A stretch of DNA of 64,000 bases, from IMG/VR virus record IMGVR_UViG_3300035670_010691, positions 44,915-108,914 of that record. One strand, written 5' to 3'. Made by a program: the position numbers and the translations under genes. Below are positions 36,483-59,478 of this stretch, in pieces. Every line of letters starts with the position of its first letter. Positions within the stretch are counted from its first letter, which is position 1. The notes beneath the pieces are model-generated. The model was not told the DNA's origin and made no database searches. It was given only the letters and a program-made list of their open reading frames with translations. The DNA is from a virus.

Positions 36483-36599
36483 ATGAATATTATACAAAAA
36501 ATAAAAGATTATTTTAAAAGAAAAAAATTACACAAAGAATACAAAAAGAAATTAGAAGAACTTCGTAAAAGAGATCCTTTCGTATATAAGAATATGTAA
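36483..36599 (+). CDS. small basic protein, 38 aa (absent from the ORF track)
   Basis: ATG...TAA fills the gap: MNIIQKIKDYFKRKKLHKEYKKKLEELRKRDPFVYKNM. Confidence 0.55.
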   Translation: MNIIQKIKDYFKRKKLHKEYKKKLEELRKRDPFVYKNM

Positions 36600-36638: not shown

Positions 36639-39600
36639 ATGAATAGTTTATCTAATTTTCTTGTTGAACAAATCCTTTTAGAAGACAAATCACCAATAAA
36701 GGATGTAGTAGTCGTTTATGTGGGTAGGTTTCAACCTATGCACAAAGGACATTATGCCGTCTATGAACACCTAACAAAAAAGTTTGGTAAAAATAATGTG
36801 TTCGTAGGAACATCCGACAAGGTTGAAAAAGATAGGTCTCCATTCTCATTCAAAGAAAAACAAGAAATTATGTATACGATGTTTGGTATTCCAAAAAATC
36901 GTATTGTAAATGTAAAAAACCCTTACGCACCCACCGAAGTTCTTAAAAAGTATAATGAGAAAACCACCGCGTTTGTCACCGTAGTTGGTGAGAAAGACAA
37001 ATCCCGTCTTGGTGGAAAATACTTTCAAAAGTGGGATGGTGAACCAACAGAAGGATATGATGTTAGGGGATATGTGTATGTCGCACCTTCTTTCGGTGGT
37101 GGTATAAGTGGAACTGAAACTCGTAATGGACTTTCACTTGGGTCAGACGAACAGAAAAAAGACTTCTTTAAAAATCGGGTATATGGAAAATATAATGAAA
37201 AGATTTTCCGTATGATTACCGACAAATTAAATGAAAGTTTCGTCATCAGAAAAGAAACCATAGAGGAATGGTTAATTAAAGAACATAATCATATCAACGG
37301 AACACTTGGGTTTTCTGACACAGGTGATATGGAAGTTGATGATGGCCCAAACTCATTCTTGCCAAACTTTGAAGTATTCAACAAAATTAATGTAGAAAGA
37401 GCAGTTAGAATTGGATACGATGTCTTACAGAAAATTACCATGGATGTGATTGAAGATTATCCAATTTATCCTGATGGGCCTGTTGATGCAGTTTCATTTT
37501 ATCCAGCAGGTGTGATTGGTAAATTAACGACAACAAACCAAGTCGATTATTATAATAATGACGCGTATGATGAGTGGTATAAACACGCAACCCGAGTTGC
37601 AGGACAAGCAGGGTATCAATTAGTTCAAACCGAATTAGAAAAAATACACGGTAAAGAAGTCGAAGACCAATCAGAAAAAGATGCAATTAACCTTAAAAAA
37701 TATATTGAAGAAAATATCAATATACCTGTAAAAGTTGGAGATACTATTTTAACAGGAAGATTTAAGAATAAAAAGGTAGTTGTAAAAAATATCGGTAAAG
37801 ATGATCATGGAATGCCCACTATAAACGGTAAAAAAGTAGTCAACTTCAGATTAGTTAAAGAAGGATTTATAGCTGAATTGGTTGGTTCAACCGTTGATTG
37901 TCAAAAATGTGACCATACTTGGGAAATTAGACCTGAAGATAAAACACCATATTTATGCCATTTGTGTGGATATGATAATCAAAAGATGGAATTTGATTAT
38001 GATGAGTGGAATAAGTGGAAAGAAAAAGAAGAAATTAATGAAGTTTCATCCAACGGTGGATATCGAGCAGACGCAGGTGAACCCGATCCAGTTTTTGTCA
38101 CAAATGGAAATATAAGAAAAATAAACTCAAACAAAGGTAGACCTGAATATTGGTTTGAAAACGGAGGGTATACACAACTTCATTTTCCAAAGGGAGATTT
38201 CCCGTTTGGTAAAGGTAAAGGAAAAGATACGGAGTCACAACAAAGAGTAGTAAAATACAAAGTTAAGAATGTAGTGAAGTCCACATTACCACCACCAAAA
38301 TCTAATGATGTAAATGTGGAAAAAATATACGAAACCATTAAAAAAGTAAATGGTAAATATGTTGTATATCCAAAAGGAGGTGGAGACAGGTTAGGAACTC
38401 ACGATACCCTTTCTGCAGCCAAAAAACAATTAGCAGCCATAGAAATTTCCAAACACAAACATGAAAGTCTTTTTGGTGGCGATGGTGGTATGAAACCTTA
38501 CGAAAAACTTCTTATGGGTGGATTGGTTAAATTCATGCAAAACACACTTGGATTTTCAGGTAAAGTAGTAGTAAAGAAAAAGTCATCAAACTCTCTATTC
38601 GGTGATTTAAGTTTAAGTGATGCTGCAATGAGAGGTAAAATCACACTTCACTACAATCCTAACTCTTCTTATGAGATAATGTTGAAGTCTCTTATACACG
38701 AACTCATACACGCTAAACAAGTTGCCAAAGGTGAACTAAAACCTTCATCTGATTACAAGTCATTAGTATGGAAGGGAAACCCTTTTATTTCGGTAAAAGA
38801 TTATAATAATTTTCAAAGAAAAGACATTAACCAATACAAAAAACTTCCTTGGGAGAAAGAAGCGTATGCTGGTATGGACAAATACTACCGTATGTTCTTA
38901 AACTCAAAAGAATTCAAAGAGTTAGTTGGTAAAGACCCTAATTTAGATTATATCTTATCAAATTTAAACGAAGTCGGTATAGGAACAGGTCAAAGTGGTC
39001 TTCGTATGGGATACCCCGATAAAGACCAATTAAAGAAGAGAATGAAGGATGTTGAAAACCAAAGAAAACAAACTGATAGTAATAAAGAGTTTCAGTATGA
39101 ACCGATAAATGAAGGTCAGTTAGAAGATTTAGGTATTACAGACTTCAAATCCCTTTTCCAAAAAATGCCTTCTGACTTACAAAAACGAGTATACAACCTC
39201 AAAAATATTGAGCAAAGAAAAGACACACACCCCGAGGGTAATGTCCTTAAACACACCATTACAGTCGTTAATCGTTCACTTAAAGATGATGATATAGACA
39301 TCGCAATTGCAGCAATGTTTCATGATATTGGTAAAGACGAAACGATGGGTATTCATCCAACAAAAGGACACATTACTCACTTCGGTCACGAAAAAGTATC
39401 TGCAAATTTAGTAAGTAAATACAAAAACTGGATACAAAGTGTTGGTGCTAATCCTGCAAATGTTTTATACATCGTCAAAAATCATATGAGATATAAAGAA
39501 CTATCTAATATGAGACCAAAAAAACAGGAAAAACTTAAATCATTTAGAGCATTTGATAAATTAGATAAGTTTTCTAAACACGATAGAGGTGGTTTAGGTG

Positions 39601-41579
39601 AAGGTATTGATTATGTTGTTTGTCGGGAATGTGGTGAGAAGATGAAACAAGTTCAATACAGACATCTCCAATATAAACACAACATGACGTTGGAAGAATA
39701 CAGAAAAAAACATCCAAGTGCACAACTTGTCTGTGAAACTGCAAAAAGTATTGGTGATAAAAATCCAATGAAAAACACAGAGGTTAGAAAAAAACATCAA
39801 AAATCTGTATCATCTATTGAGTATAAACAAATGATGAGTGAACGGATGACAGGTGTGAACAAAGGAAATAAACGACCTGATTTAGAAAAACTAAACAAAG
39901 ATCCTAATTTTAGAAGAAAAATAAGTGAAGGTGTAAAACGTTCATATCAAAACAACCCAAGTCTTTTAGAAAACAGAACTAATTCGGGTAAAAAATATGG
40001 ATTTGGAAATCAAAAAACAAAAGAAAAAATAGCAAAGATAAAAGGTCACGTTAGTCCACAAGATAAAGACCCATTTTTATTCTATACCGAATTGGTTAGA
40101 AATAAAACAAATGAAAACTATCAAAAACATTTTGATAAAATAGAAAATGCTAAAAAACGAAGTAGAGATTTTCATTTAGATCACAAATACAGTATAAAAG
40201 AAGGATTTGATAATAATATTCCTGTTGAAGTGATTGCACATTATAAAAATCTACGAATACTTGATGGTAGATTGAATGAGAGTAAAGGATCGAAATCTTC
40301 AATAAAACTAAATGAACTCATTGTAGATATACAAAATTCAAATGATCCACTTGATAATAGAATACTTTTATTATGCGGTGGGGCGTACGGCCACATGGCT
40401 CATCCGTTTGATACAGAGATAAACTTAACTTTCGGTGACCTTAAAGATATTGCTAATCGTGCATTAGATGGAACACTTGAACTAACCACCGAGAAAACAG
40501 ACGGACAAGCACTTGCAATTTCTTGGAGAGATGATAGAGGTTTAATTGCTGCAAGAAACAAAGGACACCTTAAAAATCGTGGTGAAAGTGCATTGGATAT
40601 AAATGGTGTATCTGCTAAATTCCAAGGTCGTGGTGGTCTTTCAGACGCTTACAATTTTGCTATGAAAGACCTAACTAAAGCAATAAAAACTTTATCTCCA
40701 AAACAAAGAGAAAAGATTTTCCAAAATGGTAGTTCATTTATGAATTTAGAAGTCATTTACCCAACTTCGGTAAATGTTATTCCTTACGGTCAACCACTTC
40801 TTATTTTCCACGGAACAATGCAATATGACGAAAATGGAATTGCTGTTGGTGAAAATAAAGAAGCAGCAAGAATACTTGCAGGTATGATTAAACAAGTCAA
40901 CCAAGATGTTCAAGACAATTATACTATTCAAGGTCCACCCTTTATTCAATTACCAAAATCACAAACACTTTCTTCTAAAAAAGGAAAGTATTTAGGTCAA
41001 ATTCAAAAATTACAAAGTGAGTTTGGTTTAAAAGATACAGATGGAGTTGCAGAATATCATCAGGCCTGGTGGTCTAATTGGGTAGATAAAAACTCACCTG
41101 TCACATTAGACAATAAAACCAAAATGGGATTGGTTAAGAGATGGGCTTTTGGTGATAAATCTTTTAGTTTAAATAAAAACAATATACCTGACCAAAAATT
41201 ATTAGAGTGGGCACAAAAACACGAAAAAGACAACCATCAAAAAATTTCAAAAGATAATTTAATGAAATTTGAAAATATATTCTTGGGTCTTGGTGCAGAA
41301 GTATTAGAATTTACTTCATCTGCCCTAACTGTAAATCCTGATAAAGCAATTAGGGATATGAAACAAAGATTAGACCAAACTGCTAAGGATGTTCGCAAAT
41401 CAGGTGACCCTAAAAAAATAGCAAAACTTAAATTAGAATTGGAAAGATTAAACTCTATTGGTGGTCCATCTAAAATCGTTCCAATCGAAGGGATAGTTTT
41501 TCAATATAAAGGAAAAACGATGAAACTTACTGGTTCATTTGCTTCTCTCAACCAAATCTTGGGTATTTTTTACGGATGA
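36639..41579 (+). CDS. multidomain (polyvalent-type) polyprotein: HIGH nucleotidyltransferase, Zn ribbon, HExxH metallopeptidase-like, HD phosphohydrolase, HNH endonuclease, KxDG ligase-like nucleotidyltransferase
   Basis: GRFQPMHKGH; CQKC/CHLC; HELIH; FHDIGK; HLDHKYS...N; EKTDG...EGIVF...KLTG; domains separated by [LIV]xE. Confidence 0.75.
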   Translation: MNSLSNFLVEQILLEDKSPIKDVVVVYVGRFQPMHKGHYAVYEHLTKKFGKNNVFVGTSDKVEKDRSPFSFKEKQEIMYTMFGIPKNRIVNVKNPYAPTEVLKKYNEKTTAFVTVVGEKDKSRLGGKYFQKWDGEPTEGYDVRGYVYVAPSFGGGISGTETRNGLSLGSDEQKKDFFKNRVYGKYNEKIFRMITDKLNESFVIRKETIEEWLIKEHNHINGTLGFSDTGDMEVDDGPNSFLPNFEVFNKINVERAVRIGYDVLQKITMDVIEDYPIYPDGPVDAVSFYPAGVIGKLTTTNQVDYYNNDAYDEWYKHATRVAGQAGYQLVQTELEKIHGKEVEDQSEKDAINLKKYIEENINIPVKVGDTILTGRFKNKKVVVKNIGKDDHGMPTINGKKVVNFRLVKEGFIAELVGSTVDCQKCDHTWEIRPEDKTPYLCHLCGYDNQKMEFDYDEWNKWKEKEEINEVSSNGGYRADAGEPDPVFVTNGNIRKINSNKGRPEYWFENGGYTQLHFPKGDFPFGKGKGKDTESQQRVVKYKVKNVVKSTLPPPKSNDVNVEKIYETIKKVNGKYVVYPKGGGDRLGTHDTLSAAKKQLAAIEISKHKHESLFGGDGGMKPYEKLLMGGLVKFMQNTLGFSGKVVVKKKSSNSLFGDLSLSDAAMRGKITLHYNPNSSYEIMLKSLIHELIHAKQVAKGELKPSSDYKSLVWKGNPFISVKDYNNFQRKDINQYKKLPWEKEAYAGMDKYYRMFLNSKEFKELVGKDPNLDYILSNLNEVGIGTGQSGLRMGYPDKDQLKKRMKDVENQRKQTDSNKEFQYEPINEGQLEDLGITDFKSLFQKMPSDLQKRVYNLKNIEQRKDTHPEGNVLKHTITVVNRSLKDDDIDIAIAAMFHDIGKDETMGIHPTKGHITHFGHEKVSANLVSKYKNWIQSVGANPANVLYIVKNHMRYKELSNMRPKKQEKLKSFRAFDKLDKFSKHDRGGLGEGIDYVVCRECGEKMKQVQYRHLQYKHNMTLEEYRKKHPSAQLVCETAKSIGDKNPMKNTEVRKKHQKSVSSIEYKQMMSERMTGVNKGNKRPDLEKLNKDPNFRRKISEGVKRSYQNNPSLLENRTNSGKKYGFGNQKTKEKIAKIKGHVSPQDKDPFLFYTELVRNKTNENYQKHFDKIENAKKRSRDFHLDHKYSIKEGFDNNIPVEVIAHYKNLRILDGRLNESKGSKSSIKLNELIVDIQNSNDPLDNRILLLCGGAYGHMAHPFDTEINLTFGDLKDIANRALDGTLELTTEKTDGQALAISWRDDRGLIAARNKGHLKNRGESALDINGVSAKFQGRGGLSDAYNFAMKDLTKAIKTLSPKQREKIFQNGSSFMNLEVIYPTSVNVIPYGQPLLIFHGTMQYDENGIAVGENKEAARILAGMIKQVNQDVQDNYTIQGPPFIQLPKSQTLSSKKGKYLGQIQKLQSEFGLKDTDGVAEYHQAWWSNWVDKNSPVTLDNKTKMGLVKRWAFGDKSFSLNKNNIPDQKLLEWAQKHEKDNHQKISKDNLMKFENIFLGLGAEVLEFTSSALTVNPDKAIRDMKQRLDQTAKDVRKSGDPKKIAKLKLELERLNSIGGPSKIVPIEGIVFQYKGKTMKLTGSFASLNQILGIFYG
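39603..40370 (+). mobile_element. in-frame HNH homing-endonuclease-like module
   Basis: CRECG...H...H zinc finger, NUMOD3-like basic repeats (GDKNPM, RRKISEG), DHKYSIKEGF...NLRIL...NESK HNH core. Confidence 0.65.
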
Positions 41580-41580
41580 T

Positions 41581-42402
41581 ATGCAAATAAAAGATGTTAT
41601 TTTAAATATTAAAAATGAATATTTAGAAACTTGTAAACTTTCATCTCCATCAATTAATCATAATCTTAATGAAAAACAAAGATTATGGTCTAATATATCA
41701 AAAAAAATATATGTAATTGGTGATAAACTTGAACATTTTGAAGACCAAGCAAATAAAGTTGGATTGAATGACATTTATTATAAACTAACTTTTCTTGATA
41801 TCAGTAAAAACGAAAGTTTAAAAGAATATCGACATCTTTATGAAGAATATGTAGAAAAAATAGACGAAAATTGGCGTCTTTATTTTTACTATTTTGGTTG
41901 TCATTTATCTCATTATTTTGTTTTAAATGATTTTTTAAAATCAAACGAAACTCATGCAATAGTTTTTGAAAATGATTGTACTTTTAATTTTGAAATTGAA
42001 AATTCATTATTGATAGAACTAAAAAAATTATTAGATAATAGAAAAGATATTGGTTATCTTAATTTGGGATTTGGTGATTTGAAAGAAGATTTTAAATCTG
42101 ATATTAAAATTGGAAATTTTTATATACAAGAATTACGTTCTTCTTCCATGACTCATTCTTATATTATAAATCGAGATGAAGCTTTAAATTTTTGTAATAC
42201 ACTTAATTTTAATATCCCTATGCGACCTCCTAAAGAATGGTGCATTTTTGGAAGAAATAATCAACATTTGGAAATTGGATATAGAACACAAATAGATGAT
42301 TATTTTAGTACATTTGTTAGAAATTTTGGTATTTATTTTCCTCTTACATACCAAGAAAATATTAATATAGCCAGTCAAAAAGGATTTAAATATTTAGATT
42401 AA
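41581..42402 (+). CDS. GT25-like glycosyltransferase
   Basis: GCHLSH, IVFENDC, THSYII, IDD motifs. Confidence 0.65.
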   Translation: MQIKDVILNIKNEYLETCKLSSPSINHNLNEKQRLWSNISKKIYVIGDKLEHFEDQANKVGLNDIYYKLTFLDISKNESLKEYRHLYEEYVEKIDENWRLYFYYFGCHLSHYFVLNDFLKSNETHAIVFENDCTFNFEIENSLLIELKKLLDNRKDIGYLNLGFGDLKEDFKSDIKIGNFYIQELRSSSMTHSYIINRDEALNFCNTLNFNIPMRPPKEWCIFGRNNQHLEIGYRTQIDDYFSTFVRNFGIYFPLTYQENINIASQKGFKYLD

Positions 42403-42439: not shown

Positions 42440-43114
42440 ATGGGAAAAGAACAAAAAGAATTTAGAAAATCATATATGCACCCAACTCGTAGAAAACTTG
42501 TGGATATGGTTTTGACGGGTGAATACGATAAAGATATAAAAGTAGGATACACTTCCGATATTGATAAAAAACAAATTATTAGAAAAGTCGGTGAAAAATG
42601 GGAAGATGATAAGTACATCTACGAACAGAAAGATGGATATGTAACCAAAGCGGGTAAAAACACCGAAGTATTTACAGATTTAAGAAAGTGGTTACAAGAA
42701 CAAACCAAATGTAAAAACACCGAATGTAAATCTAAAAAGAGTACGCAAAAAGATAAAAAACTTATCATAAAAACAGGATATTGTATAAACTGTTTAGCAG
42801 AAATTGAAACCGAAGTTCGTCACAAAGGAGTTTGGCAAGAATATCAAAACTACCGCATTTGGACAAAAATGATTTTAGAAGGTAAAAAAAAATTAGAAGA
42901 TTTAAAAGAAGCACATGATAATTTAAAACAGGAATATGAATATATTAATTCAGATGGTCGACCAGAAAAATGGTCTCTTGATAAACCTGTTGAAGAAGTC
43001 AAAAAAGAAATGTGGGATTTTATTGAAAAAGGTAATGAAGAAATACTTGTTTTAGAAAATAAAAAAAATGAAGCGTTTGAAATTTTAAAACAAAAAGGTT
43101 TCGATATATTTTAA
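42440..43114 (+). CDS. hypothetical phage protein with a possible Zn site
   Basis: CKNTEC...CINC; preceded by the TATTTATA motif. Confidence 0.55.
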   Translation: MGKEQKEFRKSYMHPTRRKLVDMVLTGEYDKDIKVGYTSDIDKKQIIRKVGEKWEDDKYIYEQKDGYVTKAGKNTEVFTDLRKWLQEQTKCKNTECKSKKSTQKDKKLIIKTGYCINCLAEIETEVRHKGVWQEYQNYRIWTKMILEGKKKLEDLKEAHDNLKQEYEYINSDGRPEKWSLDKPVEEVKKEMWDFIEKGNEEILVLENKKNEAFEILKQKGFDIF

Positions 43115-47124: not shown

Positions 47125-47718
47125 ATGATGAATACTATAAAAGAAACCCAAGAACTTTACGAAGAATATAGAAAACAATTTACTGAAAGGTCGGTAATAA
47201 CGGAAGCAATACAACTTCACCAAGAAACCAAACTTCCTTTTATTGAGAATATTTTTCGTATGTATTCCAAAAATTATTTTAAAACGATAAACGAAGCTCG
47301 TAAACTTTACAACGAAGGAAAACTCAAAAATATCCACGAATGGGACAAAGAGTTATTCAAAACAGACATAGGTAAAGTTGGAGTTTATGAAGGAAAGAAA
47401 GTTCCACTTGATATACCTTTAATGGAAGCGGAGTATCAAGGTAAAGATGTAGACTTAAACCAACCTAAACGAGGTGGTTCCAAAAAGTTTTATGTATATG
47501 TGAAAGACGGTGATAAAGTAAAGAAAGTTTCTTTTGGTGCACAAGGTGGAGGTGGTTCTCTTGCAGTTAAACTAAAAGATCCTGAAGCCAAAAAGGCATT
47601 TAAAGACAGACACAACTGTGAACAGAAAAACGATAAGACCAAAGCAGGATATTGGGCTTGTAGACTTCCTCGTTACGCAAAGTCATTAGGACTTTCTGGT
47701 GGAGGTCAGTGGTGGTAA
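47125..47718 (+). CDS. phage head-associated hypothetical protein
   Basis: LME^AEYQG...KKFYVYVK...VSFG...RHNC...AGYWAC, a module type recognised from T4-like phages. Confidence 0.55.
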   Translation: MMNTIKETQELYEEYRKQFTERSVITEAIQLHQETKLPFIENIFRMYSKNYFKTINEARKLYNEGKLKNIHEWDKELFKTDIGKVGVYEGKKVPLDIPLMEAEYQGKDVDLNQPKRGGSKKFYVYVKDGDKVKKVSFGAQGGGGSLAVKLKDPEAKKAFKDRHNCEQKNDKTKAGYWACRLPRYAKSLGLSGGGQWW

Positions 47719-47719
47719 T

Positions 47720-47980
47720 ATGAAACCATACAAAGAAAATATAAAAGGAAATATCAAAGAAAGAGTGTTTACTGAAAATGTAGATACTCACGAATTGGTA
47801 TGGCATAGAGATAGAAATGATAGAGAAGTTACAATAGTAGAGGGAAACGGTTGGATGTTTCAAATGGATAATGAACTTCCTGTAGTACTAAACGAAGGAG
47901 ATGTCTTATACATCCCGAAAAACACTTATCACAGAATACTTCGTGGTAATGGTAATTTAAAACTCAAAATTAAAGAATAA
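47720..47980 (+). CDS. small cupin-domain protein
   Basis: WHRD...E...GDVLYIPKNTYHRI. Confidence 0.7.
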   Translation: MKPYKENIKGNIKERVFTENVDTHELVWHRDRNDREVTIVEGNGWMFQMDNELPVVLNEGDVLYIPKNTYHRILRGNGNLKLKIKE

Positions 47981-47983
47981 GTA

Positions 47984-49699
47984 ATGGCAGATACAACATT
48001 TTTTGGTAGGTTAAAAAAACTATTTAACTCTCAAGCAATTGTAACCGTAGACAAGGACGGGAAACGAAAAGTTTTTGATGCAAATGAAAATCAACAAACA
48101 AATTTATCTAATTTAAGAGATAGATATACTAAAATTCAGAAGTCTTTCTATGAAATGGCGGGCGGTGCTCAATCAATGGCATACCAACAAGTTCGTAGAG
48201 AAGTTTTCCGTGATTATGATGCAATGGATCAAGACCCGATTATTGCTTCTGCTCTTGATATTTACGCAGACGAGTCCACTCTTAAAAACGAATTCGGTGA
48301 TACACTCACTATTGTTTCAGATAATGAAAGAGTTCAAGAAATTCTTCAAAATCTTTTCTATGATATTCTTAACATAGAGTTTAACCTATGGCCTTGGACA
48401 CGTAATATGTGTAAGTATGGTGATTTCTTCTTAGGTCTTGAAATTGCGGAAGGTAAAGGTATAGTAAATGTTATGCCTCATTCTGTTTACAATACCGAAA
48501 GAATGGAGATGATTGACCCTTCCAATCCTCATGTGGTAAAGTTCAAAATTATGGAAGACCCAAACGGAAAACAAGAGTATGAGGATTTTGAAATCGCTCA
48601 CTTCCGTCTTCTTTCAGATACTAACTGGTTACCATACGGTAAATCTATGATTGAAAATGGTAGAAGATTGTGGAAACAACTTTCACTTATGGAAGATGCG
48701 ATGTTAATCCATAGAATTATGAGAGCACCTGAAAAGAGAGTGTTTAAAATTGATATTGGAACCATACCACCAAATGAAGTTGATAATTATATGCAAAGAA
48801 TTATCAATAAAATGAAAAAGGTTCCATTTCTTGATAAGAACACAGGTGATTACAACTTAAAATATAATATGCAAAATCTTACCGAAGATTTCTACCTACC
48901 CGTTCGTGGTGGTGATAGTGGAACTTCTATTGATAATATCGGTGGGTTAGAATACACAAGTATTGAAGATATTGATTATCTAAAAGGTAAATTATTCTCA
49001 GCTCTTAAAATTCCAAAAGCATACTTGGGATATGAAGAAAACATTAACGGTAAAGCAACACTCGCAGCAGAAGATGTTAGGTTTGCAAGAACAATTGAAA
49101 GAATTCAAAAAACACTTGTATCTGAATTAACTAAAATTGCAGTTATTCACCTTTACGCACAAGGTATACAAGATAGTGAGATGTTAAACTTTGAATTAGC
49201 ACTTGTTAATCCATCTACCATCTACGAACAAGAAAAAGTAAACCTTTGGTCTGAAAAAGTTCGTTTGGCACAGGATATAGCTGGTCTGAATATGTTATCA
49301 AAAGATTGGGTATATGATAATATCTTTAAAATACCTACAAGTGAAAAAGAAGAACAACAGATTAAAGTAATTAATGACCTAAAAGACCGTTTCCGTTATA
49401 ATTCTATTGAAAATGAAGGAAACGACCCTGCACAGGAAGACCAACAACCTACAGACATCGAAGAGGAATTGGAAACACTTAAAACTGAATTAAAAGATAA
49501 AGGTGGAAGACCGAGAGAAGGTAATACTTATAGTAAAGACAAACACCCTTATGGAAGAGATCCATTGGGTGATGACGAAAGAACAAGACCTCGTAGTAGG
49601 ACATCCGAGGAAAAAATCCGTAAATATTTAAACGGCGTTTCATCAAAAAGAACTTATTTACATGAAAATGATACTTTATTAAACAAAAATAAAGTATGA
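47984..49699 (+). CDS. portal protein (T4 gp20-like)
   Basis: LMEDAMLIHRIMRAPEKRVFKIDIG, EDFYLP, LKIPKAYL, EDVRF. Confidence 0.95.
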   Translation: MADTTFFGRLKKLFNSQAIVTVDKDGKRKVFDANENQQTNLSNLRDRYTKIQKSFYEMAGGAQSMAYQQVRREVFRDYDAMDQDPIIASALDIYADESTLKNEFGDTLTIVSDNERVQEILQNLFYDILNIEFNLWPWTRNMCKYGDFFLGLEIAEGKGIVNVMPHSVYNTERMEMIDPSNPHVVKFKIMEDPNGKQEYEDFEIAHFRLLSDTNWLPYGKSMIENGRRLWKQLSLMEDAMLIHRIMRAPEKRVFKIDIGTIPPNEVDNYMQRIINKMKKVPFLDKNTGDYNLKYNMQNLTEDFYLPVRGGDSGTSIDNIGGLEYTSIEDIDYLKGKLFSALKIPKAYLGYEENINGKATLAAEDVRFARTIERIQKTLVSELTKIAVIHLYAQGIQDSEMLNFELALVNPSTIYEQEKVNLWSEKVRLAQDIAGLNMLSKDWVYDNIFKIPTSEKEEQQIKVINDLKDRFRYNSIENEGNDPAQEDQQPTDIEEELETLKTELKDKGGRPREGNTYSKDKHPYGRDPLGDDERTRPRSRTSEEKIRKYLNGVSSKRTYLHENDTLLNKNKV

Positions 49700-49732
49700 T
49701 AATTAATTAAATTAAGGTAATCTTTAATAAAA

Positions 49733-49743
49733 TTATATTTATA
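49733..49743 (+). promoter_or_regulatory. candidate late promoter TTATATTTATA
   Basis: Recurring intergenic motif, here after the portal gene. Confidence 0.5.
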
Positions 49744-49784
49744 ATAGATATTTTTAGTATATCAAAAAGAAATTATTAGAAAGA

Positions 49785-50645
49785 ATGAAACGAATCAAAC
49801 ACAGCAAATTTAAAAATACAGGTTTTTTATTTGAACTTTTAACAAGACAAGTGACTCTTGAGATTCTTAATGGTTCAGATGAAAAGTCTAAATTTATCGT
49901 TAAAGAATTTTTTAATGGTAAAACAGAATTATCAAAAGAATTACGTTTATTTAATTTACTTTTGAATGAAAAACAGGTAAATGAAAATAAATCAGAAAAA
50001 TTTATTGACTTGATAATTCAAGCACACTCTCACATTAACATTGAAAAACTAAATGAAGAAAAGTATAATTTAGTTAAGAAAATTAAAGAAAACTTTAATG
50101 TTGAGAACTTTTTTGCTTCTCCTATAACAAATTATAAAGTTTTAGCATCTATACACAAATTATTTGAAGCAAAAAAATTAGATGTTAAAAATGTTAAGGA
50201 TGTTTTTGATTCTCGTCAAACTTTGGTAGAACACATTTCCAAAGAAAAAGTTAATAAACAAAAAAATACAGATAAATTAGTTGAAACTTACAAAAAACAA
50301 GAAGAAGATGTAAGATTATTAACTTATAAAATTCTTGTTGAAACTTTTAACAAAAAGTATTCAAAGTTAAATGAAAATCAAAAAGGACTTTTAAAGAATT
50401 ATATTAATAATGTTAATAATTCATCAAAGTTTAAAGATTATTACAAAAAACAATTAAAAGAAGTTATAGTAATAATGACCGAATTATTTAACCAAATGAA
50501 TGATAAAGTCACCAAAATTAAATTAAAAGAAACCATCAACGTATTAAAAAACCAAAAAATATTGAGGGAGGTGAGTGATAATCAAGTATCAGCGTTGATG
50601 ATGGCTTTTGAGTTAGTAAAAGAGATAAAAAATGTTAGAAAGTGA
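49785..50645 (+). CDS. hypothetical head-module protein
   Basis: Helical ORF directly after the portal gene, with an upstream TATTTATA. Confidence 0.6.
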   Translation: MKRIKHSKFKNTGFLFELLTRQVTLEILNGSDEKSKFIVKEFFNGKTELSKELRLFNLLLNEKQVNENKSEKFIDLIIQAHSHINIEKLNEEKYNLVKKIKENFNVENFFASPITNYKVLASIHKLFEAKKLDVKNVKDVFDSRQTLVEHISKEKVNKQKNTDKLVETYKKQEEDVRLLTYKILVETFNKKYSKLNENQKGLLKNYINNVNNSSKFKDYYKKQLKEVIVIMTELFNQMNDKVTKIKLKETINVLKNQKILREVSDNQVSALMMAFELVKEIKNVRK

Positions 50646-50823
50646 ATTAAAGGAGTATATACGAGAACTTGTCAGAGAGATTCAGATGGAGTTAGACGAA
50701 ACTACTACTACTGCTTCTGTTGACGGGTATCAAACTCCCTTCGCTTTTTCAGGTGGTAGAACCAAAGATAAAAAAAAGAAAAAGGATATAATAGACGCTT
50801 CAGGTTATGAAGAAGTTAAATAG
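50632..50823 (+). CDS. small putative head internal protein
   Basis: Amphipathic leader ending LDE, then TTTASVDGYQTPFAF. Confidence 0.5.
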   Translation: MLESELKEYIRELVREIQMELDETTTTASVDGYQTPFAFSGGRTKDKKKKKDIIDASGYEEVK

Positions 50824-50832
50824 GGACTAATT

Positions 50833-51633
50833 ATGAAAATTTCAAAAAACAGATTAAGAGAGATTGTTAAAGAAGTTATTAAAGAAGAGTCAGAATACCA
50901 AGAGTTCTTCAAAAGAGCATTAGAAAAAACAGGTAAATCAATACCACAAATGTCTGATGAAGAGAAAAAGGCTTTCTTTGATAAAATTGAAGCTGCATGG
51001 AAAGGTAAAGGTGAGAAAAATGAAGGTAACGCATTTGGTGCTGCTGTTTCTCAAGCAAAAGAAGAAGGTGATGACTCGTTTGAGGTTGGTGGAAAAACAT
51101 TCAAAGTAAAAGAAGCAACAATGGGTGAATCTGAACTTCCTAATGTTGCTATCCCAAGTAGTGTAAAAACAAAGTTAAATTTGGCTATTGATAAAATTAA
51201 AGATAGTAAATTAACTTACCCACAAAAATTACAAGTGGTTGGTAAAATTATTGATAGTTTAGGTGTTGATAAACAAGAATTGACTAAAATGTCAAGTAGA
51301 TTAAGAGGAACTTTGGAATCCGTAGTAAACGAAGCAAAAGTAATTGTATATAATGAAAAAACTGGTGAACGATATGAGGTTTTATCTGGAAAGGGTAAGG
51401 GTGATTTGTTTATTGCTATGAAAGCTTTACAAAAAGTAGCCCCATCTCATATGAAATATTCTATCAAAGAATCCGTAGTAAAAGAAGGTGCTTCATCAGA
51501 AGAACTTCGTATGGCTAAAAACGCAATTAAAAACTTTGCAAGATATAGAAGAGTTCCAGGTGAACAAGCAATATATGACTTGATGAGAGCTCTTAAAGAT
51601 GTTGAAAGAGAATATAAACAAAAAAAGAAGTGA
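50833..51633 (+). CDS. modular putative head internal polyprotein
   Basis: Leader MKISKNRLREIVKEVIKE; two ESVV[NK]E linkers. Confidence 0.55.
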   Translation: MKISKNRLREIVKEVIKEESEYQEFFKRALEKTGKSIPQMSDEEKKAFFDKIEAAWKGKGEKNEGNAFGAAVSQAKEEGDDSFEVGGKTFKVKEATMGESELPNVAIPSSVKTKLNLAIDKIKDSKLTYPQKLQVVGKIIDSLGVDKQELTKMSSRLRGTLESVVNEAKVIVYNEKTGERYEVLSGKGKGDLFIAMKALQKVAPSHMKYSIKESVVKEGASSEELRMAKNAIKNFARYRRVPGEQAIYDLMRALKDVEREYKQKKK

Positions 51634-51806
51634 AAAAATTAGATGAAATACTTAACGAGTTGGTTTTGGAAGAGTTAGAAAAAAACCAAAACCTAAAAGA
51701 AGAAATCACGGGTGTTGATGAAGATAAAATCCGTGATTTAATTCGTTCAGAAGTTTCAGCAATATTTTTTGATTTATTTAAGAAACGTAAAATGTGGGGA
51801 GCGTAA
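51630..51806 (+). CDS. small protein, 58 aa (absent from the ORF track)
   Basis: GTG overlaps the upstream TGA and the stop abuts the protease ATG: MKKLDEILNELVLEE...FFDLFKKRKMWGA. Confidence 0.6.
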   Translation: MKKLDEILNELVLEELEKNQNLKEEITGVDEDKIRDLIRSEVSAIFFDLFKKRKMWGA

Positions 51807-52400
51807 ATGAAACAACTTTTAATAGAAACAAATCTATTTGAAGGTAAAATAAATGAAGATGCAAGTGGTAGAACACTTGTTAAAGGAATTTTACAACGAG
51901 CAGGTGCAGAAAACCAAAATGGTAGAGTGTATCCAAAAGATATTTTAATGCGTGAAGCAAAGAAATATGAAACTCTTATTAATGAAAGAAGAGCACTTGG
52001 TGAATTAGACCACCCTGACTCATCAGTCATTAACTTAAAGAATGTATCCCACAATATTAAAGAAATTCACTGGGAAGGAAATGACTTGATGGGAACCGTA
52101 GAAATCCTTCCAACTCCAAGTGGAAACATTTTAAAAGAATTACTAAAAGCAGGTATCCTTCTTGGTATATCTTCCCGTGGTATGGGTTCAGTAAAACCAA
52201 TTGGAGAAAATAAGGTAGAAGTCGGTGAAGACTTTGAACTAATTGGCTGGGACTTTGTTTCTAACCCGTCAACACACGGAGCATTTATGGTTCCAGTAAA
52301 CGAAAGTGTAAATAGAGGTCAAATGATTGGGTCTGAGCAATGTGATATTTATTGTAAAGCACAAGACTTAATGAGAGAAATTATAACTGAATTAGGATAA
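51807..52400 (+). CDS. prohead core protease (T4 gp21-like)
   Basis: NQNGRVYP, ALGELDHP, VSH, TPSG, GISSRGMGS, DFVSNPS. Confidence 0.95.
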   Translation: MKQLLIETNLFEGKINEDASGRTLVKGILQRAGAENQNGRVYPKDILMREAKKYETLINERRALGELDHPDSSVINLKNVSHNIKEIHWEGNDLMGTVEILPTPSGNILKELLKAGILLGISSRGMGSVKPIGENKVEVGEDFELIGWDFVSNPSTHGAFMVPVNESVNRGQMIGSEQCDIYCKAQDLMREIITELG

Positions 52401-52404
52401 AAAA

Positions 52405-52989
52405 ATGAGTAAATTTGATTTAGAAAAATATCTAAAAGAAAATAAAATCGGACTTGGTAAATATAAAACTACCGAAGGTGGTAAAGTTGCCAAAGGAGTT
52501 TCTGATGTCCGTAAAACGAATTACGATGTTCGTATTACCGAAGATGGTAAGTTAGACCTTTATACTCACAAATCAGTTATTGCTGAAGGTGGTAAAGTTC
52601 TTATCAGAGAAAATGAAGAAAGACCTCTTGCAACTGAAGTTAAAAGACACTTTTTAGAAATTATATCCACATACAAAGGTTTCCAAGAACAAATGCAAAG
52701 ACAAAGTGATATTGTTCAGACAGCAGAAACTTTGGGTGGTGTGGTTGAAGCAGCAAAAACTCTTACTCTTTCTGAAGCAGGTGATTGGTTTGATAAAGTC
52801 ACGGTGAAAAGAAATATGAGTGAGTTAGATAAGTTAGATAAAGCATTTGATAAAGTTGCTCAGGAAGCAAAATCATTAGACGAAAGATTACACGCACTTT
52901 ACGAAGATATGGGTAATATCCTCAATCGTTATTATGAAATCAGTGATATTGACCCCCTAACGATGAAAGAAAGATTAGGTCAAAAATGA
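52405..52989 (+). CDS. hypothetical head-module protein
   Basis: ORF with a coiled-coil C-terminus; several [LI]xE sites. Confidence 0.55.
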   Translation: MSKFDLEKYLKENKIGLGKYKTTEGGKVAKGVSDVRKTNYDVRITEDGKLDLYTHKSVIAEGGKVLIRENEERPLATEVKRHFLEIISTYKGFQEQMQRQSDIVQTAETLGGVVEAAKTLTLSEAGDWFDKVTVKRNMSELDKLDKAFDKVAQEAKSLDERLHALYEDMGNILNRYYEISDIDPLTMKERLGQK

Positions 52990-53177
52990 TAAAGTTAAAA
53001 GATATTATATCAGAAGAAGTTTTAGAGGAAAAGAATTGTCCTACTGATTCTTCAAAATGGTCGTATTGGAAAGGACAAGCAAAAAAGAAATTTGATGTAT
53101 ATCCTTCTGCTTACGCAAATGGCTGGGCTTCAAAACAATACAAAGCCGCCGGCGGTGCCTGGAAAAAATGTGATTAA
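52986..53177 (+). CDS. small putative head internal protein
   Basis: Leader MIKLKDIISEEVLEE; AKKKFDVYPSAYANG...YKAAGG. Confidence 0.6.
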   Translation: MIKLKDIISEEVLEEKNCPTDSSKWSYWKGQAKKKFDVYPSAYANGWASKQYKAAGGAWKKCD

Positions 53178-53188
53178 TATTTATAACT

Positions 53189-53455
53189 ATGAAAACAAAA
53201 TTAAAATTCTTATTAGAAGGTAATAGATACCAAGAACTTCGTAAATCCGAAGGAACTCCTAATCAAAAAATCGGAGTTGGTATTCGTAATATAAGAAAAC
53301 AACTTACAGAAATGGAAAAGTTTGTTGAGTGGTATTCCAAACTTAAAACTGAAAATGAATTAGGTAGAGATCAGTATTGGAAAAGAACCCAAAAACATTT
53401 ACACGGGGTCAGAGAAAGATTAATGTCTTTGTCAGAAAAAATAAGAAAACTTTAA
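53189..53455 (+). CDS. small hypothetical protein
   Basis: Leader MKTKLKFLLEG. Confidence 0.55.
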   Translation: MKTKLKFLLEGNRYQELRKSEGTPNQKIGVGIRNIRKQLTEMEKFVEWYSKLKTENELGRDQYWKRTQKHLHGVRERLMSLSEKIRKL

Positions 53456-53496
53456 GGTAAAAACAATTTAGATTAAATTTAAAAAGGAACAAACTA

Positions 53497-56196
53497 ATGC
53501 CAGCAGTATCACAACAACAACAAAAGATTTTCGGTTTAGCCCTTTCAGTTAAAAGGGGTGAAACTCCTCGTTCAGAAGCATCCCAAGAAGTATTAGATAT
53601 TGTTGATTCTATGACAGAAAAAGACATAGAAGATTTTGCTGGAACAGAACACAAAGGACTTCCTAAAAAAGTAGAACAAAAACTTCGTGAAAAAATTAGA
53701 GAAATTATAAAAAATAATATTAACGAAGTTAGTGAACCCCAAATCATAACACAACTCAAAGATGTTTTAAAAACCGGGTACAAATCTATTAAAGACCCAA
53801 AAACCGGTAAAAAAATGAAAGTAGATAGGTATTCAGCATCCGCAATCGTTGGTGTATATGATAAACTCAATCAATCAAATAAAGAGAAATTTGCTCAACA
53901 AGGTCTTCTAAAAATGCAATCAATTGCATTTAAATTATTGAAGAATGAATCTGTAGTAAGTGAAGGTATTTGGCCGAAATCAAAATTGAGTCCAAGATTT
54001 GAATTTCTATTAGCTCCTGAATTAAAAAAGAAATTTAAAGGCACTTTCCATGTTGATGGGTATGATTTATATCATAATAATAAAATGATTATGAGAATAG
54101 ATAGAGATAAAGATTCCGTAAATTCAATCGTAAATCATATAAGTAGGAATCGTTCAATCCAAAAAAACGAATCAGTAAACGAAGCATCCGATGATTACGA
54201 TTATGCAGGCGAATTACAAGACGCAGTTGAAAAGACATTAAAAGGAAAAAACATTAAAGGATGGAGATTAGATGTAGATTCTCGTTCCGGTACATTTGAA
54301 TATACTAAAAAAGGTATTGATTTAGTAGTATATGCAACTCCAATGTGGGATGGTAACAAGTTTGTTCCATTCAACGTACAAGATATGGAAGGTGATGATG
54401 TTGATATGATACAGAGAGTAATTGGAAACAGATTGACATTCAAACCAACATATGATGTAAAGAAAGATGTTTCTAACTATATTTCAGTAGTAACAAAAAC
54501 ATTAGCAAAAGTAGAACAAGTTTATAGTAAATTAAATATAAAAGGAAACACTCCGGGTGATGTGGGAATGAGAGCATCAATGAAAGACAATGTTGAAAGA
54601 TTGAAAAACGAATCCGTAGTAAACGAACTTAAAAAACTTCCAAACGGAAATTTCTCAATCAAAAAAGGATACAACACCTTTGCTGATTACGAAAAGAACG
54701 CGAAACCAGGCGATACTATCTTAAAGTATGGCAAAAGAGGTAATATGATTAAAACTTTTGTAAATGGTAGTGAATTAAACCAAAATGCTAAAAAGTATTT
54801 AAGTAAGGTTCATAGTATTGTAGGTGATAAAGTAAACCTATCTTTATTTGGAAAGCAAGGAATTTCAACTATACCTGATTATGAAAAGAAAGAAGTTGGT
54901 GTATTAGTATTGGAATCCATAGTAAGTGAAAGGAAACCAAGTAAAATAGTTTGGGATACTAAAAAAATCTCGGATGCAAAAAGAATCAATGTTAGAAAGT
55001 GGTATATGAAAACTTATCCTACCGATGAACTTGGTGGTGAAATAGACAAAAGAATTTCATTATGGGATGTTTACGAATACTTATCACAGGGTCGTGATGC
55101 ATATAAAATTATTGGTGTTGGTGATAGTGTTGTAAGAGAAAGAATATTTGAAAAACTATCTAAGGTCCTTGGTGTTGATTACGATACCATTTACAATATG
55201 TGGGAATCTGTAATAAACGAATTATCTTACGCAGATGGTCCTGCAGTAGGTTGGATTAAAAAGAAAAATGGTAAAAAAGAAGTTGTAAAGGTATTCAATA
55301 CATATAGAGGTGCTTTAATGTGGCAAGCAAAAACAGGATTGAAACTTCTTCACAGAGGCGAAGTTCAAACTGTTGGAGTAGCAAATCAAGAACAATGGGA
55401 AAAACACAAAGCTCAATTCCCAAATCAGTATGTAGAATCCGTAGTAAACGAAGCAGAAAAACCAAAAGTAGTAACCAAAGCAGAGTGGGATAGAACTCAC
55501 AAAGATTTTAAAGGTATGGTAGATGGTAAACCATATATGATGTGGTTAGATAAAAAAACACAAGAAACTATATATGGTCCAGTCACTATAAAAGAAGGGG
55601 TAGTAAGTGAAGGTAAATATGATGATATTTTAGATAAAATACAAAACACAATTCAAAATGCGTCATCTTTTATGAATGTAGGAAAAGAGTTGAAAAACGC
55701 AGGTATTAAATATGATTTTTCAACTTCTATGATACCGATGTATAGAATTAAAGTACCAGGAAACACGATTGCTATTGTTAATAAACGATATGCCGCTGAT
55801 GCTGAAAGAGAAGTGAAAGATATGGCAATTGGTTTATTAGAAGGAAAATTTTTACAAGAAGGACGTGCCTTTATTAACGCAGCTAAAAAAGCAAAAGAAG
55901 AAGGTAAGACAGAGTTTGAGTTTAATGGTAAAACCTATCCTGTAACACTTAAAGAGAATATGATAAACGAGATGAATGATGCTGAGTTTGTGGCAGACCA
56001 ATTAGTAAATCCTGTGGCGGATGGTAGTATGAGTAGAAGTGAGTTTATCAATTTTGTTAGTAAAGAAACAAAGTTTGATAGAAACTCACTTGGTAAAGTA
56101 TATGACGCTTATTTCAAACTTGGTGGTAGAGACAGAGTAAAATTAGATATTACAAAAAACGCACTTTTATTTTTATCAAAATTTGGAATTAAATAA
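53497..56196 (+). CDS. modular putative head internal polyprotein (N-terminal DUF3008-like module plus about 10 cassettes)
   Basis: MPAVSQQQQK..GLAL..KRGE...DIEDFAGT.HKGLP; repeated ESV(V)NE linkers. Confidence 0.65.
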   Translation: MPAVSQQQQKIFGLALSVKRGETPRSEASQEVLDIVDSMTEKDIEDFAGTEHKGLPKKVEQKLREKIREIIKNNINEVSEPQIITQLKDVLKTGYKSIKDPKTGKKMKVDRYSASAIVGVYDKLNQSNKEKFAQQGLLKMQSIAFKLLKNESVVSEGIWPKSKLSPRFEFLLAPELKKKFKGTFHVDGYDLYHNNKMIMRIDRDKDSVNSIVNHISRNRSIQKNESVNEASDDYDYAGELQDAVEKTLKGKNIKGWRLDVDSRSGTFEYTKKGIDLVVYATPMWDGNKFVPFNVQDMEGDDVDMIQRVIGNRLTFKPTYDVKKDVSNYISVVTKTLAKVEQVYSKLNIKGNTPGDVGMRASMKDNVERLKNESVVNELKKLPNGNFSIKKGYNTFADYEKNAKPGDTILKYGKRGNMIKTFVNGSELNQNAKKYLSKVHSIVGDKVNLSLFGKQGISTIPDYEKKEVGVLVLESIVSERKPSKIVWDTKKISDAKRINVRKWYMKTYPTDELGGEIDKRISLWDVYEYLSQGRDAYKIIGVGDSVVRERIFEKLSKVLGVDYDTIYNMWESVINELSYADGPAVGWIKKKNGKKEVVKVFNTYRGALMWQAKTGLKLLHRGEVQTVGVANQEQWEKHKAQFPNQYVESVVNEAEKPKVVTKAEWDRTHKDFKGMVDGKPYMMWLDKKTQETIYGPVTIKEGVVSEGKYDDILDKIQNTIQNASSFMNVGKELKNAGIKYDFSTSMIPMYRIKVPGNTIAIVNKRYAADAEREVKDMAIGLLEGKFLQEGRAFINAAKKAKEEGKTEFEFNGKTYPVTLKENMINEMNDAEFVADQLVNPVADGSMSRSEFINFVSKETKFDRNSLGKVYDAYFKLGGRDRVKLDITKNALLFLSKFGIK

Positions 56197-56197
56197 A

Positions 56198-58921: not shown

Positions 58922-59457
58922 TAAAATTAAAATCTCTTATATCAGAAGATAAAGTATCAGGTGGTCTATCTGATAATATGTCTTTATCTGACATTGCAAA
59001 AAAACATAATGTATCAGTAGAAGAACTCAATAAAGAGTTTGAAATGGGTATGAAAGTAGAAATGGAACATACCACAGATAAAGAGATAGCTAAAGAAATA
59101 GCAAAAGACCACTTATTTGAAGACCCAAAATACTACACTAAATTAGCAACCATAGAAACCAACGAAGACCTCCGTAATTGGTTTAAATCTAAATGGGTAA
59201 ACATCGGTAAAAAAGTAGATGGTAAACACCCACCTTGTGGAACAAGTGGTGAGAAAAGTGGGTATGCTAAATGTGTTCCTGCATCAAAAGCAGCAACAAT
59301 GTCCAAAAAAGAAAAAGAAAGTGCAACACGTAGAAAACGTGCAGCACAAAATAAAGCAAACAGAGGTGGAGTTGATTCACCAGGTCAAGGAAAAAAACCT
59401 ATTAATGTTTCAACCCATCCCTATGGTAAAAAATCAGGAACAGGAAAAGGTTCATAA
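58918..59457 (+). CDS. two-module putative head protein (DUF5661-like module plus basic Cys module)
   Basis: Leader MIKLKSLISE; GMKVEMEHT...IAKDHL.EDPKYYTKL; TNE^DLRNWF...PCG...KCVP. Confidence 0.55.
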   Translation: MIKLKSLISEDKVSGGLSDNMSLSDIAKKHNVSVEELNKEFEMGMKVEMEHTTDKEIAKEIAKDHLFEDPKYYTKLATIETNEDLRNWFKSKWVNIGKKVDGKHPPCGTSGEKSGYAKCVPASKAATMSKKEKESATRRKRAAQNKANRGGVDSPGQGKKPINVSTHPYGKKSGTGKGS

Positions 59458-59478
59458 CAATTCAAAATTAACAAACAA

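Follow-up and report, generated by a model that had tools for sequence, protein, structure and literature searches.

A predicted head-targeted cargo polyprotein of RNA-repair-type modules, encoded upstream of the terminase gene in an uncultured T4-like marine phage

Why would a T4-like phage join many enzymes in one long chain, close to its terminase and portal genes, and punctuate this chain with tripeptides that resemble the cleavage sites of a prohead protease? We met this question in a 64,000-nucleotide stretch of viral DNA (the window; positions 44,915 to 108,914 of the IMG/VR record IMGVR_UViG_3300035670_010691). The record is a 108.9-kb fragment, 45% complete, of an uncultured T4-like marine phage. 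A single uninterrupted open reading frame (ORF) on the + strand, at window positions 36639-41579, encodes a protein of 1646 amino acids (aa). An earlier interpretation made from the DNA letters, called here the sequence-only reading, had already recognized this ORF and described it as a virion-packaged polyprotein of unrelated enzymes, cut at its joints by a gp21-type protease. We consider it fairly probable that the protein is a head-targeted cargo polyprotein, which a T4 gp21-type protease would cut at [LIV]-x-E joints, freeing an RNA-repair-type toolkit that would be ejected with the DNA. The basis for this is domain architecture, motif statistics, folds, and gene order; targeting, cleavage, ejection, and enzyme activity are predictions from them.

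In the proposed mechanism, a leader of 10-15 residues would act like the capsid targeting sequence (CTS) of T4 and bring the whole chain into the prohead scaffolding core. The gp21-type serine protease encoded by ORF 51807 would then cut after Glu in [LIV]-x-E, mostly [LI]-N-E, at the module joints, giving up to about ten pieces. The cut pieces would remain in the capsid and leave with the DNA at ejection. Their job may be to heal and reseal broken tRNA/RNA ends of the host or the phage at the start of infection, countering RNA-cutting defences, with extra effectors going along.

The joints KLNE (ending at residue 199, position 37235), YIEE (358, 37712), LVKE (408, 37862), EINE (468, 38042), NLNE (778, 38972), PINE (825, 39113), and GLGE (988, 39602) lie exactly where the sequence-only reading had placed them. 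To see where similarity between family members breaks off, we compared 165 relatives by all-against-all BLAST and counted the internal ends of high-scoring segment pairs (HSPs), that is, the ends where both partners continue. We find that 16.7% of these ends fall exactly on [LIV]xE compared with 1.4% for the background (~12-fold), counts that are not independent and are inflated by kinship, as the family members are related. The five commonest tripeptides at HSP ends are LDE, LNE, LGE, IKE, and INE. The HSP starts are unbiased. Thus, the conserved part lies on the P-side, and each module has its own conserved C-terminal tag. In our protein, 21 HSPs end at E199, 24 at E408, 22 at E825, 60 at E988, and 83 exactly at E468. 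The motif is kept in 76% of the homologs at LNE199, 78% at VKE408, 89% at INE468, 81% at INE825, and 91% at the ending of the HD module, whose consensus GGL[GDH]E is the largest breakpoint class (63 proteins). The codons of the junctions vary (TTA AAT GAA, ATT AAT GAA, TTA AAC GAA, ATA AAT GAA, and TTA GGT GAA), which argues that the conservation acts on the peptide and not on a DNA repeat. A DNA-repeat joint, as found in neighbouring polyproteins described below, was rejected for this gene on the same ground.

The motif also avoids the folded modules. The observed/expected ratio of [LI]xE is 0.47 in the C-terminal ligase domain (272-286 sequences), 0.34 in the N-terminal nucleotidyltransferase (251 homologs), and 0.36 in the module that follows it, module 2. 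As controls, [LI]xD gives ratios of 1.05-1.27 in the same three modules, and [LI]xE gives 0.94 each in two other proteins of these phages, the large terminase (TerL) and the portal. Among five differently built members, 2 of the 93 sites fall within Pfam domain envelopes compared with 20.7 expected (p = 2.5e-8), and motif sites in relatives bracket units, for instance kinase-HD and CCA-adding enzyme. The sequence-only reading had raised the question of whether the sites fall inside folded domains. Besides this depletion, we checked the sites one by one on an AlphaFold model of residues 200-1246, which is poor (mean predicted local distance difference test score, pLDDT, 58; 45% of residues <50) and was used site by site only. 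Linkers with pLDDT <50 hold sites 358, 408, 413, 468, and 988. The last helix of the HExxH module has site 778 at its end, and site 825 is found between helices. One tripeptide of that module, IHE688, sits buried within its catalytic helix. Taken site by site only, the joints do not fall inside folded domains. Foldseek searches with this 1047-residue middle model gave weak rows only (E at least 0.1).

Does the phage encode an enzyme for such joints? The sequence-only reading had pointed to ORF 51807..52400 (+) as the protease, and this assignment held: the ORF matches PF03420 (Peptidase_S77) at 95.5 bits (cut-off 27) and phrog_207, head maturation protease, at E 3e-51. We take this T4 gp21-type prohead protease as the proposed processing enzyme. 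It carries motif sites of its own, LIE7, FE12, and INE17 at the N-terminal end and VNE166 near the C-terminus. The phage also encodes a gp20-type portal (PF07230, 223 bits), a gp23-type capsid protein (PF07068, 258 bits), and a large terminase; the S77 protease, the gp20 portal, and the gp23 capsid protein together make a T4-type head set. Residues 1-59 of the capsid protein (61952-63571) contain five [LI]xE. The final one, LDE with Ala after it, stands just ahead of the Pfam Gp23 match, and LDE59|A is likely the maturation site of the propeptide. Directly upstream, a very acidic ORF of 406 aa (60711-61931) with 14 [LI]xE sites looks like the scaffold. This pattern of sites in the capsid propeptide, the scaffold-like ORF, and the protease agrees with the description of T4 (PMC9026906). 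The closest cultured relatives by capsid protein are Microcystis phage Mel-JY01, Flavobacterium phage immuto, and Rhodothermus phage RM378, and the major capsid protein of RM378 is 39% identical to that of our phage. Cultured phages gave no megablast match to 20 kb of the window.

The polyprotein shares its motif class with these head proteins. We counted 22 [LIV]NE compared with 5.0 expected in the head-module proteins (47125-61931) and 6 compared with 1.5 in the polyprotein, while the other 43 ORFs have 23 compared with 19. The longer form [LIV][NS]E[ASG] occurs 13 times in the head module compared with 1.7 expected.

The leader of the polyprotein points to the head as well. In the family consensus, F-L-V-E closes a stretch of 10 residues and [IL]-x-E comes at about residue 15; these positions are 74-86% conserved in homologs. 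In our protein, the leader (residues 1-15, 36639..36683, +) has LVE at 8-10 and LLE at 13-15, making it a candidate capsid targeting sequence with cleavage sites. The T4 capsid targeting sequence is the 10-residue MKTYQEFIAE (PMC8442874), and gp21 cuts after it (PMC9026906). On the sequence level, the first 10 residues of our protein resemble it in length and ending, and by this resemblance the protein has a short leader with an [LI]-x-E end. Stand-alone ligase-domain proteins have leaders of 10-30 residues, ending [LI]xE directly before GGAxGHM, and one 10-residue example ends Y-L-I-E. Of 109 representative proteins, by our tally about three quarters have [LI]xE as the tripeptide before GGAxGHM; a second clade has it in 69 of 78 loci. 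AlphaFold gives the stretch before GGAxGHM as disordered.

The gene context is conserved. TerL follows the polyprotein gene at a distance of 3 kb, and 74-76 of 80 related viral loci keep the series polyprotein, 224-aa gene, TerL, portal. In the second clade, 80 of 80 loci have TerL as well, and in nearly all of the 160 loci together the gene neighbours terminase and portal.

Several results weigh on the other side, besides the kinship of the family members. In the single protein, [LI]xE is only marginally above chance (20 sites compared with 14.3 ± 3.4 expected, p about 0.06). The narrower [LI]NE occurs 6 times compared with 1.0 expected, and 0 of 2000 shuffles reached 6, with the motif picked post hoc when the data had already been seen. 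Within the first 20 residues, [LI]xE is only weakly commoner in head genes (6 of 11 compared with 10 of 43 others, p = 0.052). The polyprotein gene stands outside the core cluster that runs from the protease to the capsid gene, and the T4-type late promoter TATAAATA, with 17 matches compared with 15.2 expected, has none upstream of it; we also saw no obvious shared motifs upstream of the head genes. The HD module of the relatives is not depleted in [LI]xE (observed/expected 1.61). Of 82 breakpoint classes, only 12 have their end exactly on [LIVMF]xE, with several more offset by 1-4 residues, and on the poor AlphaFold model of residues 200-1246, the sites as a whole are not significantly enriched in linkers. 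The tripeptide ahead of the ligase domain in our protein is LLC and not LxE, so the nearest candidate site is LNE1226. Finally, a tblastn of the polyprotein against cultured phages found four records only, none with the long form.

Could the chain work uncut? A cytoplasmic multi-domain RNA-repair enzyme, whose two ends cooperate and whose loop tolerates insertions, would need no protease. The [LI]xE tripeptides would then be helix-capping or linker residues, or the recombination scars of module shuffling. The simplest relative, the 639-aa protein of Mel-JY01, fits this idea, since it is the two ends fused with LNP where our protein has LNE, and so does the marginal enrichment of [LI]xE in the single protein. 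It is also general knowledge that T4 Pnkp, CthPnkp, and Trl1 are multi-domain repair enzymes active uncut. However, an uncut enzyme leaves unexplained why the motif class is enriched in head-module proteins only, and why it is depleted two- to three-fold in folded modules with no such depletion in TerL or portal. The short leaders with an [LI]xE end on the stand-alone ligase-domain proteins and the likeness of the leader to the T4 CTS are left unexplained, too. As for scars, the differing junction codons leave no long DNA repeat as the joint, and the conservation is at the level of the peptide. We regard the uncut enzyme as unlikely, though it keeps some weight, and retain the cargo polyprotein as the favoured reading of the modules that follow, all encoded on the + strand.

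The leader is followed by an NMN adenylyltransferase (NMNAT)-like (H/T)xGH nucleotidyltransferase (residues 16-199, 36684..37235, end KLNE). The sequence-only reading had named a nucleotidyltransferase here, and residues 26-119 match the cytidylyltransferase-like PF01467 at 33 bits (cut-off 21), with phrog_395/3041 cytidyltransferase as further matches. The motifs GRFQPMHKGH (HKGH) and ISGTETR place the domain in the nucleotidylyltransferase superfamily. Its best NCBIfam matches are NMN adenylyltransferase equivalogs, far under their cut-offs (NF003786, 38.5 bits compared with 397; NF002243, 33.3 compared with 127), and this similarity is confined to residues 24-92. A 16-residue spacer peptide (200-215, 37236..37283) ends LIKE. 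Its context EEWL[IL]NE|SS recurs in relatives, which have WLINE where our protein has LIKE; it is 68% conserved and has AlphaFold pLDDT <50. Module 2 (residues 216-358, 37284..37712, end YIEE) has no Pfam, NCBIfam, or Protein Atlas match and a poor AlphaFold model, and no function is assigned to it. It is kept across the family, with IEE358 89% conserved, and also in a 915-aa homolog from a huge phage (P0002).

Next comes a small SH3/Tudor-like beta module (residues 359-408, 37713..37862, end LVKE), modelled by AlphaFold as five short strands with pLDDT 62-81; its Foldseek matches to Tudor domains are weak (probability 0.80-0.85). A GFIAE pentapeptide and a four-Cys Zn ribbon make up residues 409-468 (37863..38042, end EINE). 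The ribbon, which the sequence-only reading had also listed, has CxxC...CxxC at residues 414-449 with AlphaFold pLDDT 85-93, the linker 405-413 having pLDDT <50, and its HypA-like match is weak (E 0.21). Residues 469-778 (38043..38972, end NLNE) hold a disordered basic stretch, a hairpin-helix element matching phrog_3684 at residues 557-609, and the HExxH module at about 620-778. We verified the HExxH claim by phrog_16532/10499 matches at 650-758 and by a HELIH helix with pLDDT ~90. The Foldseek matches of the module, to abylysin and to SprT/SPRTN-type and M48-like peptidases, are weak, and it is present in a minority of the relatives (47 HSPs cover residue 686).

This module raises the question of whether the chain processes itself. 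In such a polyvalent protein, the embedded HExxH metallopeptidase would cut the chain before or after injection, and the prohead protease would not be involved. The weak structural likeness of the module to minimal zincins goes along with this, and Iyer et al. 2017 propose embedded metallopeptidases as the processing agents of packaged polyvalent proteins (PMC5512222). Yet the HExxH module occurs in a minority of relatives, while the junction motifs are kept in 130-240 of them. Proteases of the gp21 type are known to follow a rule of Glu at P1 and Leu/Ile at P3 (PMC9026906, PMC5694885), which is not a known rule of minimal zincins. In this phage, motifs of this class are also a mark of the capsid propeptide and the scaffold. 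Self-processing is therefore highly improbable in our judgement, and we continue with a trans-acting prohead protease as the proposed agent.

A short linker module (residues 779-825, 38973..39113, end (Q)YEPINE) carries the element (E)YQYEPIxENINE, which recurs in relatives, sometimes directly ahead of the ligase domain. It leads to the HD phosphohydrolase module (residues 826-988, 39114..39602, end GGLGE). The HD domain of the sequence-only reading stood the test of PF01966 (32.3 bits, cut-off 22, residues 879-965), and the HDIG family TIGR00277 is matched at 27.7 bits (cut-off 27.6). Its best full-length NCBIfam models, matched in the HD region only, are CCA tRNA nucleotidyltransferase and a multifunctional CCA addition/repair protein. 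The module is thus a candidate RNA 3′-end healing enzyme.

Residues 989-1226 (39603..40316, end KLNE) combine a MucR/Ros C2H2 Zn finger, a helical region, and an HNH motif. The finger, absent from the sequence-only list of modules, matches PF05443 at 33 bits (cut-off 25.4, residues 991-1025) and the PDB entry 2jsp of Ros. The HNH, which was on that list, is seen at about 1170-1220 by its motif HLDH ... NL ... N and by a phrog_5104 match at 1149-1235, and by these two only. The unit is not depleted in [LI]xE, with six sites in 238 residues, and LNE at 1212-1214, lying inside the HNH motif, is probably not a junction. Is the middle of the chain, then, mostly selfish DNA? Homing-endonuclease-like elements (Zn finger plus HNH) and inteins could have inserted in frame into the linker of an essential two-domain enzyme, with no cargo role. 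The non-depleted finger-HNH unit would suit this explanation, and relatives do carry true inteins/Hint domains (PF14890, PF07591), one right after the catalytic lysine. Our protein has no Hint or intein match, and most inserted modules are enzymes of a coherent RNA-repair theme (HD, kinase, CCA-adding enzyme). Selfish insertion would cover at most the HNH unit, leaving the conserved junction motif and the motif depletion unexplained, and we give it almost no credence. An intein reading of the whole insert was rejected, as no Hint/intein family was found by Pfam and the insert boundaries do not have intein junction residues. The cargo polyprotein thus stays the favoured explanation of the middle.

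The family comparison shows how the chain is built. In the 639-aa Mel-JY01 protein, the two ends are all there is, a nucleotidyltransferase aligned to residues 1-219 and a C-terminal domain aligned to residues 1247-1644. This implies that our protein has an insertion of about 1000 residues flanked by two constant ends. Both ends recur in more than 1400 metagenomic relatives, which are 1000-2445 aa long, are ~70-80% identical over the C-terminal 400 residues, and vary in the middle. There we find HD, PolyA_pol with an RNA-binding domain (a CCA-adding enzyme), AAA_33/Zeta-type kinase with a polynucleotide-kinase-like P-loop, GNAT, cupin, and DUF5661 domains, and also the MucR finger, HExxH, HNH, Hint (PF07591), and intein (PF14890) domains. 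The relative P0165 has the order kinase, HD, CCA-adding enzyme, ligase. A scan with P0228 returned fused forms only, 50% identical. The huge-phage homolog P0002, encoded in LR756508.1 (a 484-kb uncultured phage; L002:3608-6355), has the order ParB/sulfiredoxin-like domain (DGHHRW), nucleotidyltransferase, module 2, ligase-fold domain. This ParB-like motif, identified by eye, is in P0002 only and not in our polyprotein.

The chain ends with an RNA-ligase-fold covalent nucleotidyltransferase domain (residues 1227-1646 and the stop codon, 40317..41579). The KxDG domain that the sequence-only reading called ligase-like was verified: it spans residues 1247-1644, motif I reads EKTDG, and K60, D62, and G63 (domain numbering) are invariant in 41 sequences down to 37% identity. 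The AlphaFold model from this 41-sequence alignment has pLDDT 91 and a predicted template modelling score of 0.86, with the first 25 residues, up to GGAYG, disordered, and it shows an adenylyltransferase fold. E145 (LEVIYP), E391, and G392 (EGIVF) are invariant and K403 is nearly so; from their order, and not from superposition, we tentatively match them to motifs III, IV, and V. The domain belongs to no described Rnl/Lig family, with no Pfam or NCBIfam match, and PDB searches with the whole protein and with the C-terminal profile gave no significant ligase match (for the profile, LigA around KxDG only at E 2.5). PDB matches to eS6 (E 5e-4) were rejected because they fall in a helical insert of the ligase domain, and we judged them compositional. 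We call the domain an RNA-ligase-fold covalent nucleotidyltransferase of an undescribed, very divergent family, with a predicted activity. It forms 1760 clusters at 50% identity and is nearly always C-terminal; it also occurs as stand-alone proteins of 410-440 aa. In the relatives P0135 and P0143, an intein (Cys-Ile-[AS]-Gly-Asp-Ser-Ile...) stands directly after the catalytic lysine of KxDG, and both gene calls stop inside the intein.

Are these enzymes unrelated, as the sequence-only reading had them? We find that wording too strong. The modules share what appears, from their families and folds, to be an RNA end-healing and sealing theme (HD, kinase, CCA-adding enzyme, RNA-ligase fold). The HD module is nearest to the HD of CCA repair enzymes, the relatives carry kinase, HD, and CCA-adding units, and RM378 is the one phage with a PNKP documented as a 5′ kinase plus HD 3′-phosphatase (PMC1997131). 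Taken together, these points argue that the modules are not unrelated, and two constant ends with a swappable middle fit better. The rest of the earlier claim, a packaged polyprotein cut by a gp21-type protease, gained from the breakpoints, the motif sharing with the head module, the depletion in modules, the CTS-like leader, and the gene context. Extras beside the RNA-repair theme are the minimal HExxH peptidase, the Tudor/SH3-like module, the Zn ribbon, and the Zn-finger-HNH unit. PolyA_pol and AAA_33 were looked for in the phage's own record, the 108.9-kb fragment that is 45% complete, and not found.

A fuller picture is possible, and we offer it tentatively. One leader would haul a swappable train of enzymes into the prohead. 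Whatever module is placed between the constant ends would travel along, and the head protease would free each at its own C-terminal [LI]-x-E tag. The phage would thereby carry a pre-loaded tRNA/RNA repair kit, made of a phosphoesterase, a kinase, a CCA-adding enzyme, the new RNA-ligase family, and the NMNAT-like enzyme, together with nuclease/peptidase effectors, to counter RNA-cutting defences before phage genes are expressed. If this is true, T4's pairing of one leader with one internal protein is widened to a modular polyprotein, giving a simple evolutionary route to gain or swap injected effectors. RNA repair would shift from early-expressed to pre-packaged, which bears on how phages escape tRNA-cutting defences. 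The natural cleavable linkers and the leader could also be used for loading foreign proteins into the capsids of non-model phages. The undescribed RNA-ligase-fold family itself is very abundant, comes mostly from marine viral contigs, and has the NMNAT-like domain as its constant partner.

The neighbouring genes add some observations. A 38-codon Lys-rich ORF (36484-36598) is found in the gap of 172 bp that precedes the polyprotein gene. Downstream, a 287-aa ORF with a TTG start (41539-42402) overlaps the last 41 bases of the polyprotein gene and has a faint glucosyltransferase-like PHROG match; the relatives do not have it, their polyprotein gene being followed at once by the 224-aa gene, which suggests a local insertion. 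The 224-aa ORF (42440-43114) has no family match, stands directly after the polyprotein gene in 76 of 80 related loci and before TerL, and is by position a candidate small terminase. Between TerL and portal, a 197-aa ORF (47125-47718; phrog_7595) is kept in 58-59 related loci; with an [LI]xE observed/expected ratio of 2.3, it is probably another protease-processed head protein. Three head-module proteins, of 899 aa (53497-56196), 912 aa (56183-58921), and 266 aa (50833-51633), share a recurring linker E-S-V-(V)-N-E-A with near-identical codons (GAA TCC GTA GTA AAC GAA GCA), and the 912-aa protein also has DGHHRW, around residue 385. A 179-aa head-module ORF (58918-59457) carries DUF5661 (PF18905), which is also a module inside many polyprotein relatives. 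This indicates that both cargo systems share modules.

How does the polyprotein compare with known systems? The neighbouring polyproteins of the same phage (53497-56196 and 56183-58921) are also long chains of small unrelated modules with joints ending [VI]-N-E; the protease rule fits them, and their modules swap. They differ by the longer DNA-level repeat linker E-S-V-V-N-E-A and by their location between the protease and the capsid gene. In contrast, our polyprotein has peptide-level [LI]-x-E joints, recognizable enzymes, and two constant ends, and it lies upstream of the terminase. It is a second, distinct implementation of the cargo-polyprotein principle in one phage.

In giant phages, the T4-related proteases phiKZ gp175 and SPN3US gp245 cleave numerous head proteins behind the Glu of a three-residue motif; sites are redundant in the propeptides, and the packaged and ejected proteins include large enzymes, the virion RNA polymerase among them (PMC5694885, PMC9026906). 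Unlike our case, their motif is [SAG]-x-E and not [LI]-x-E, and the cuts remove propeptides and do not split an enzyme chain. The RNA-repair sets of T4 (Pnkp and Rnl1) and RM378 (kinase-HD PNKP and RNA ligase) are alike in having a 5′ kinase (here in relatives), an HD 3′-phosphoesterase, and an RNA-ligase fold, and in their counter-defence logic. They are separate cytoplasmic gene products without an NMNAT-like fusion, whereas our ligase domain has no significant sequence match to any solved ligase, has a large helical insert, and comes without a kinase module in the same protein.

Polyvalent proteins, a class described from phages and conjugative elements, are large and combine 2-15 disparate catalytic domains; they occur in portal-terminase phages, encoded beside late genes, and the prediction is that they are packaged and then set free as separate effectors (PMC5512222). 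With eight or more recognizable modules in one polypeptide beside terminase and portal, our protein falls under this definition. Metallopeptidase-like and GNAT modules, here or in relatives, and the ParB-like motif of one distant homolog are further likenesses. Their release is ascribed to embedded peptidases, whereas the joints here carry the motif of a trans-acting prohead protease and most members have no peptidase module. Searching the polyprotein with Pfam (E up to 1) and PHROG (E up to 0.01), we found none of the polyvalent signature domains ArdC-N, MuF, ART, DarB-type methylase/helicase, and DdrB-like ParB. Instead, RNA-ligase, HD, kinase, and CCA-adding modules dominate this family. 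The 2H domains of that report never associate with RNA ligases, and term look-ups in it gave no mention of HD-domain or CCA-adding modules (PMC5512222).

The T4 internal proteins IPI-III and Alt share with the polyprotein the type of head machinery, a 10-residue leader ending hydrophobic-x-Glu, the [LI]xE rule, variable cargo, and a proposed delivery into the host, features that are known here from sequence. T4 cargo includes an anti-restriction protein and an ADP-ribosyltransferase, whereas here it would be RNA-repair-type enzymes, and the chain would be cut many times. Each T4 internal protein has a separate small gene and its own leader; here, a chain of ~190 kDa has up to about ten modules behind one leader. 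In summary, T4 internal proteins and polyvalent proteins are the nearest known kinds, and what differs is the single leader for a whole enzyme chain.

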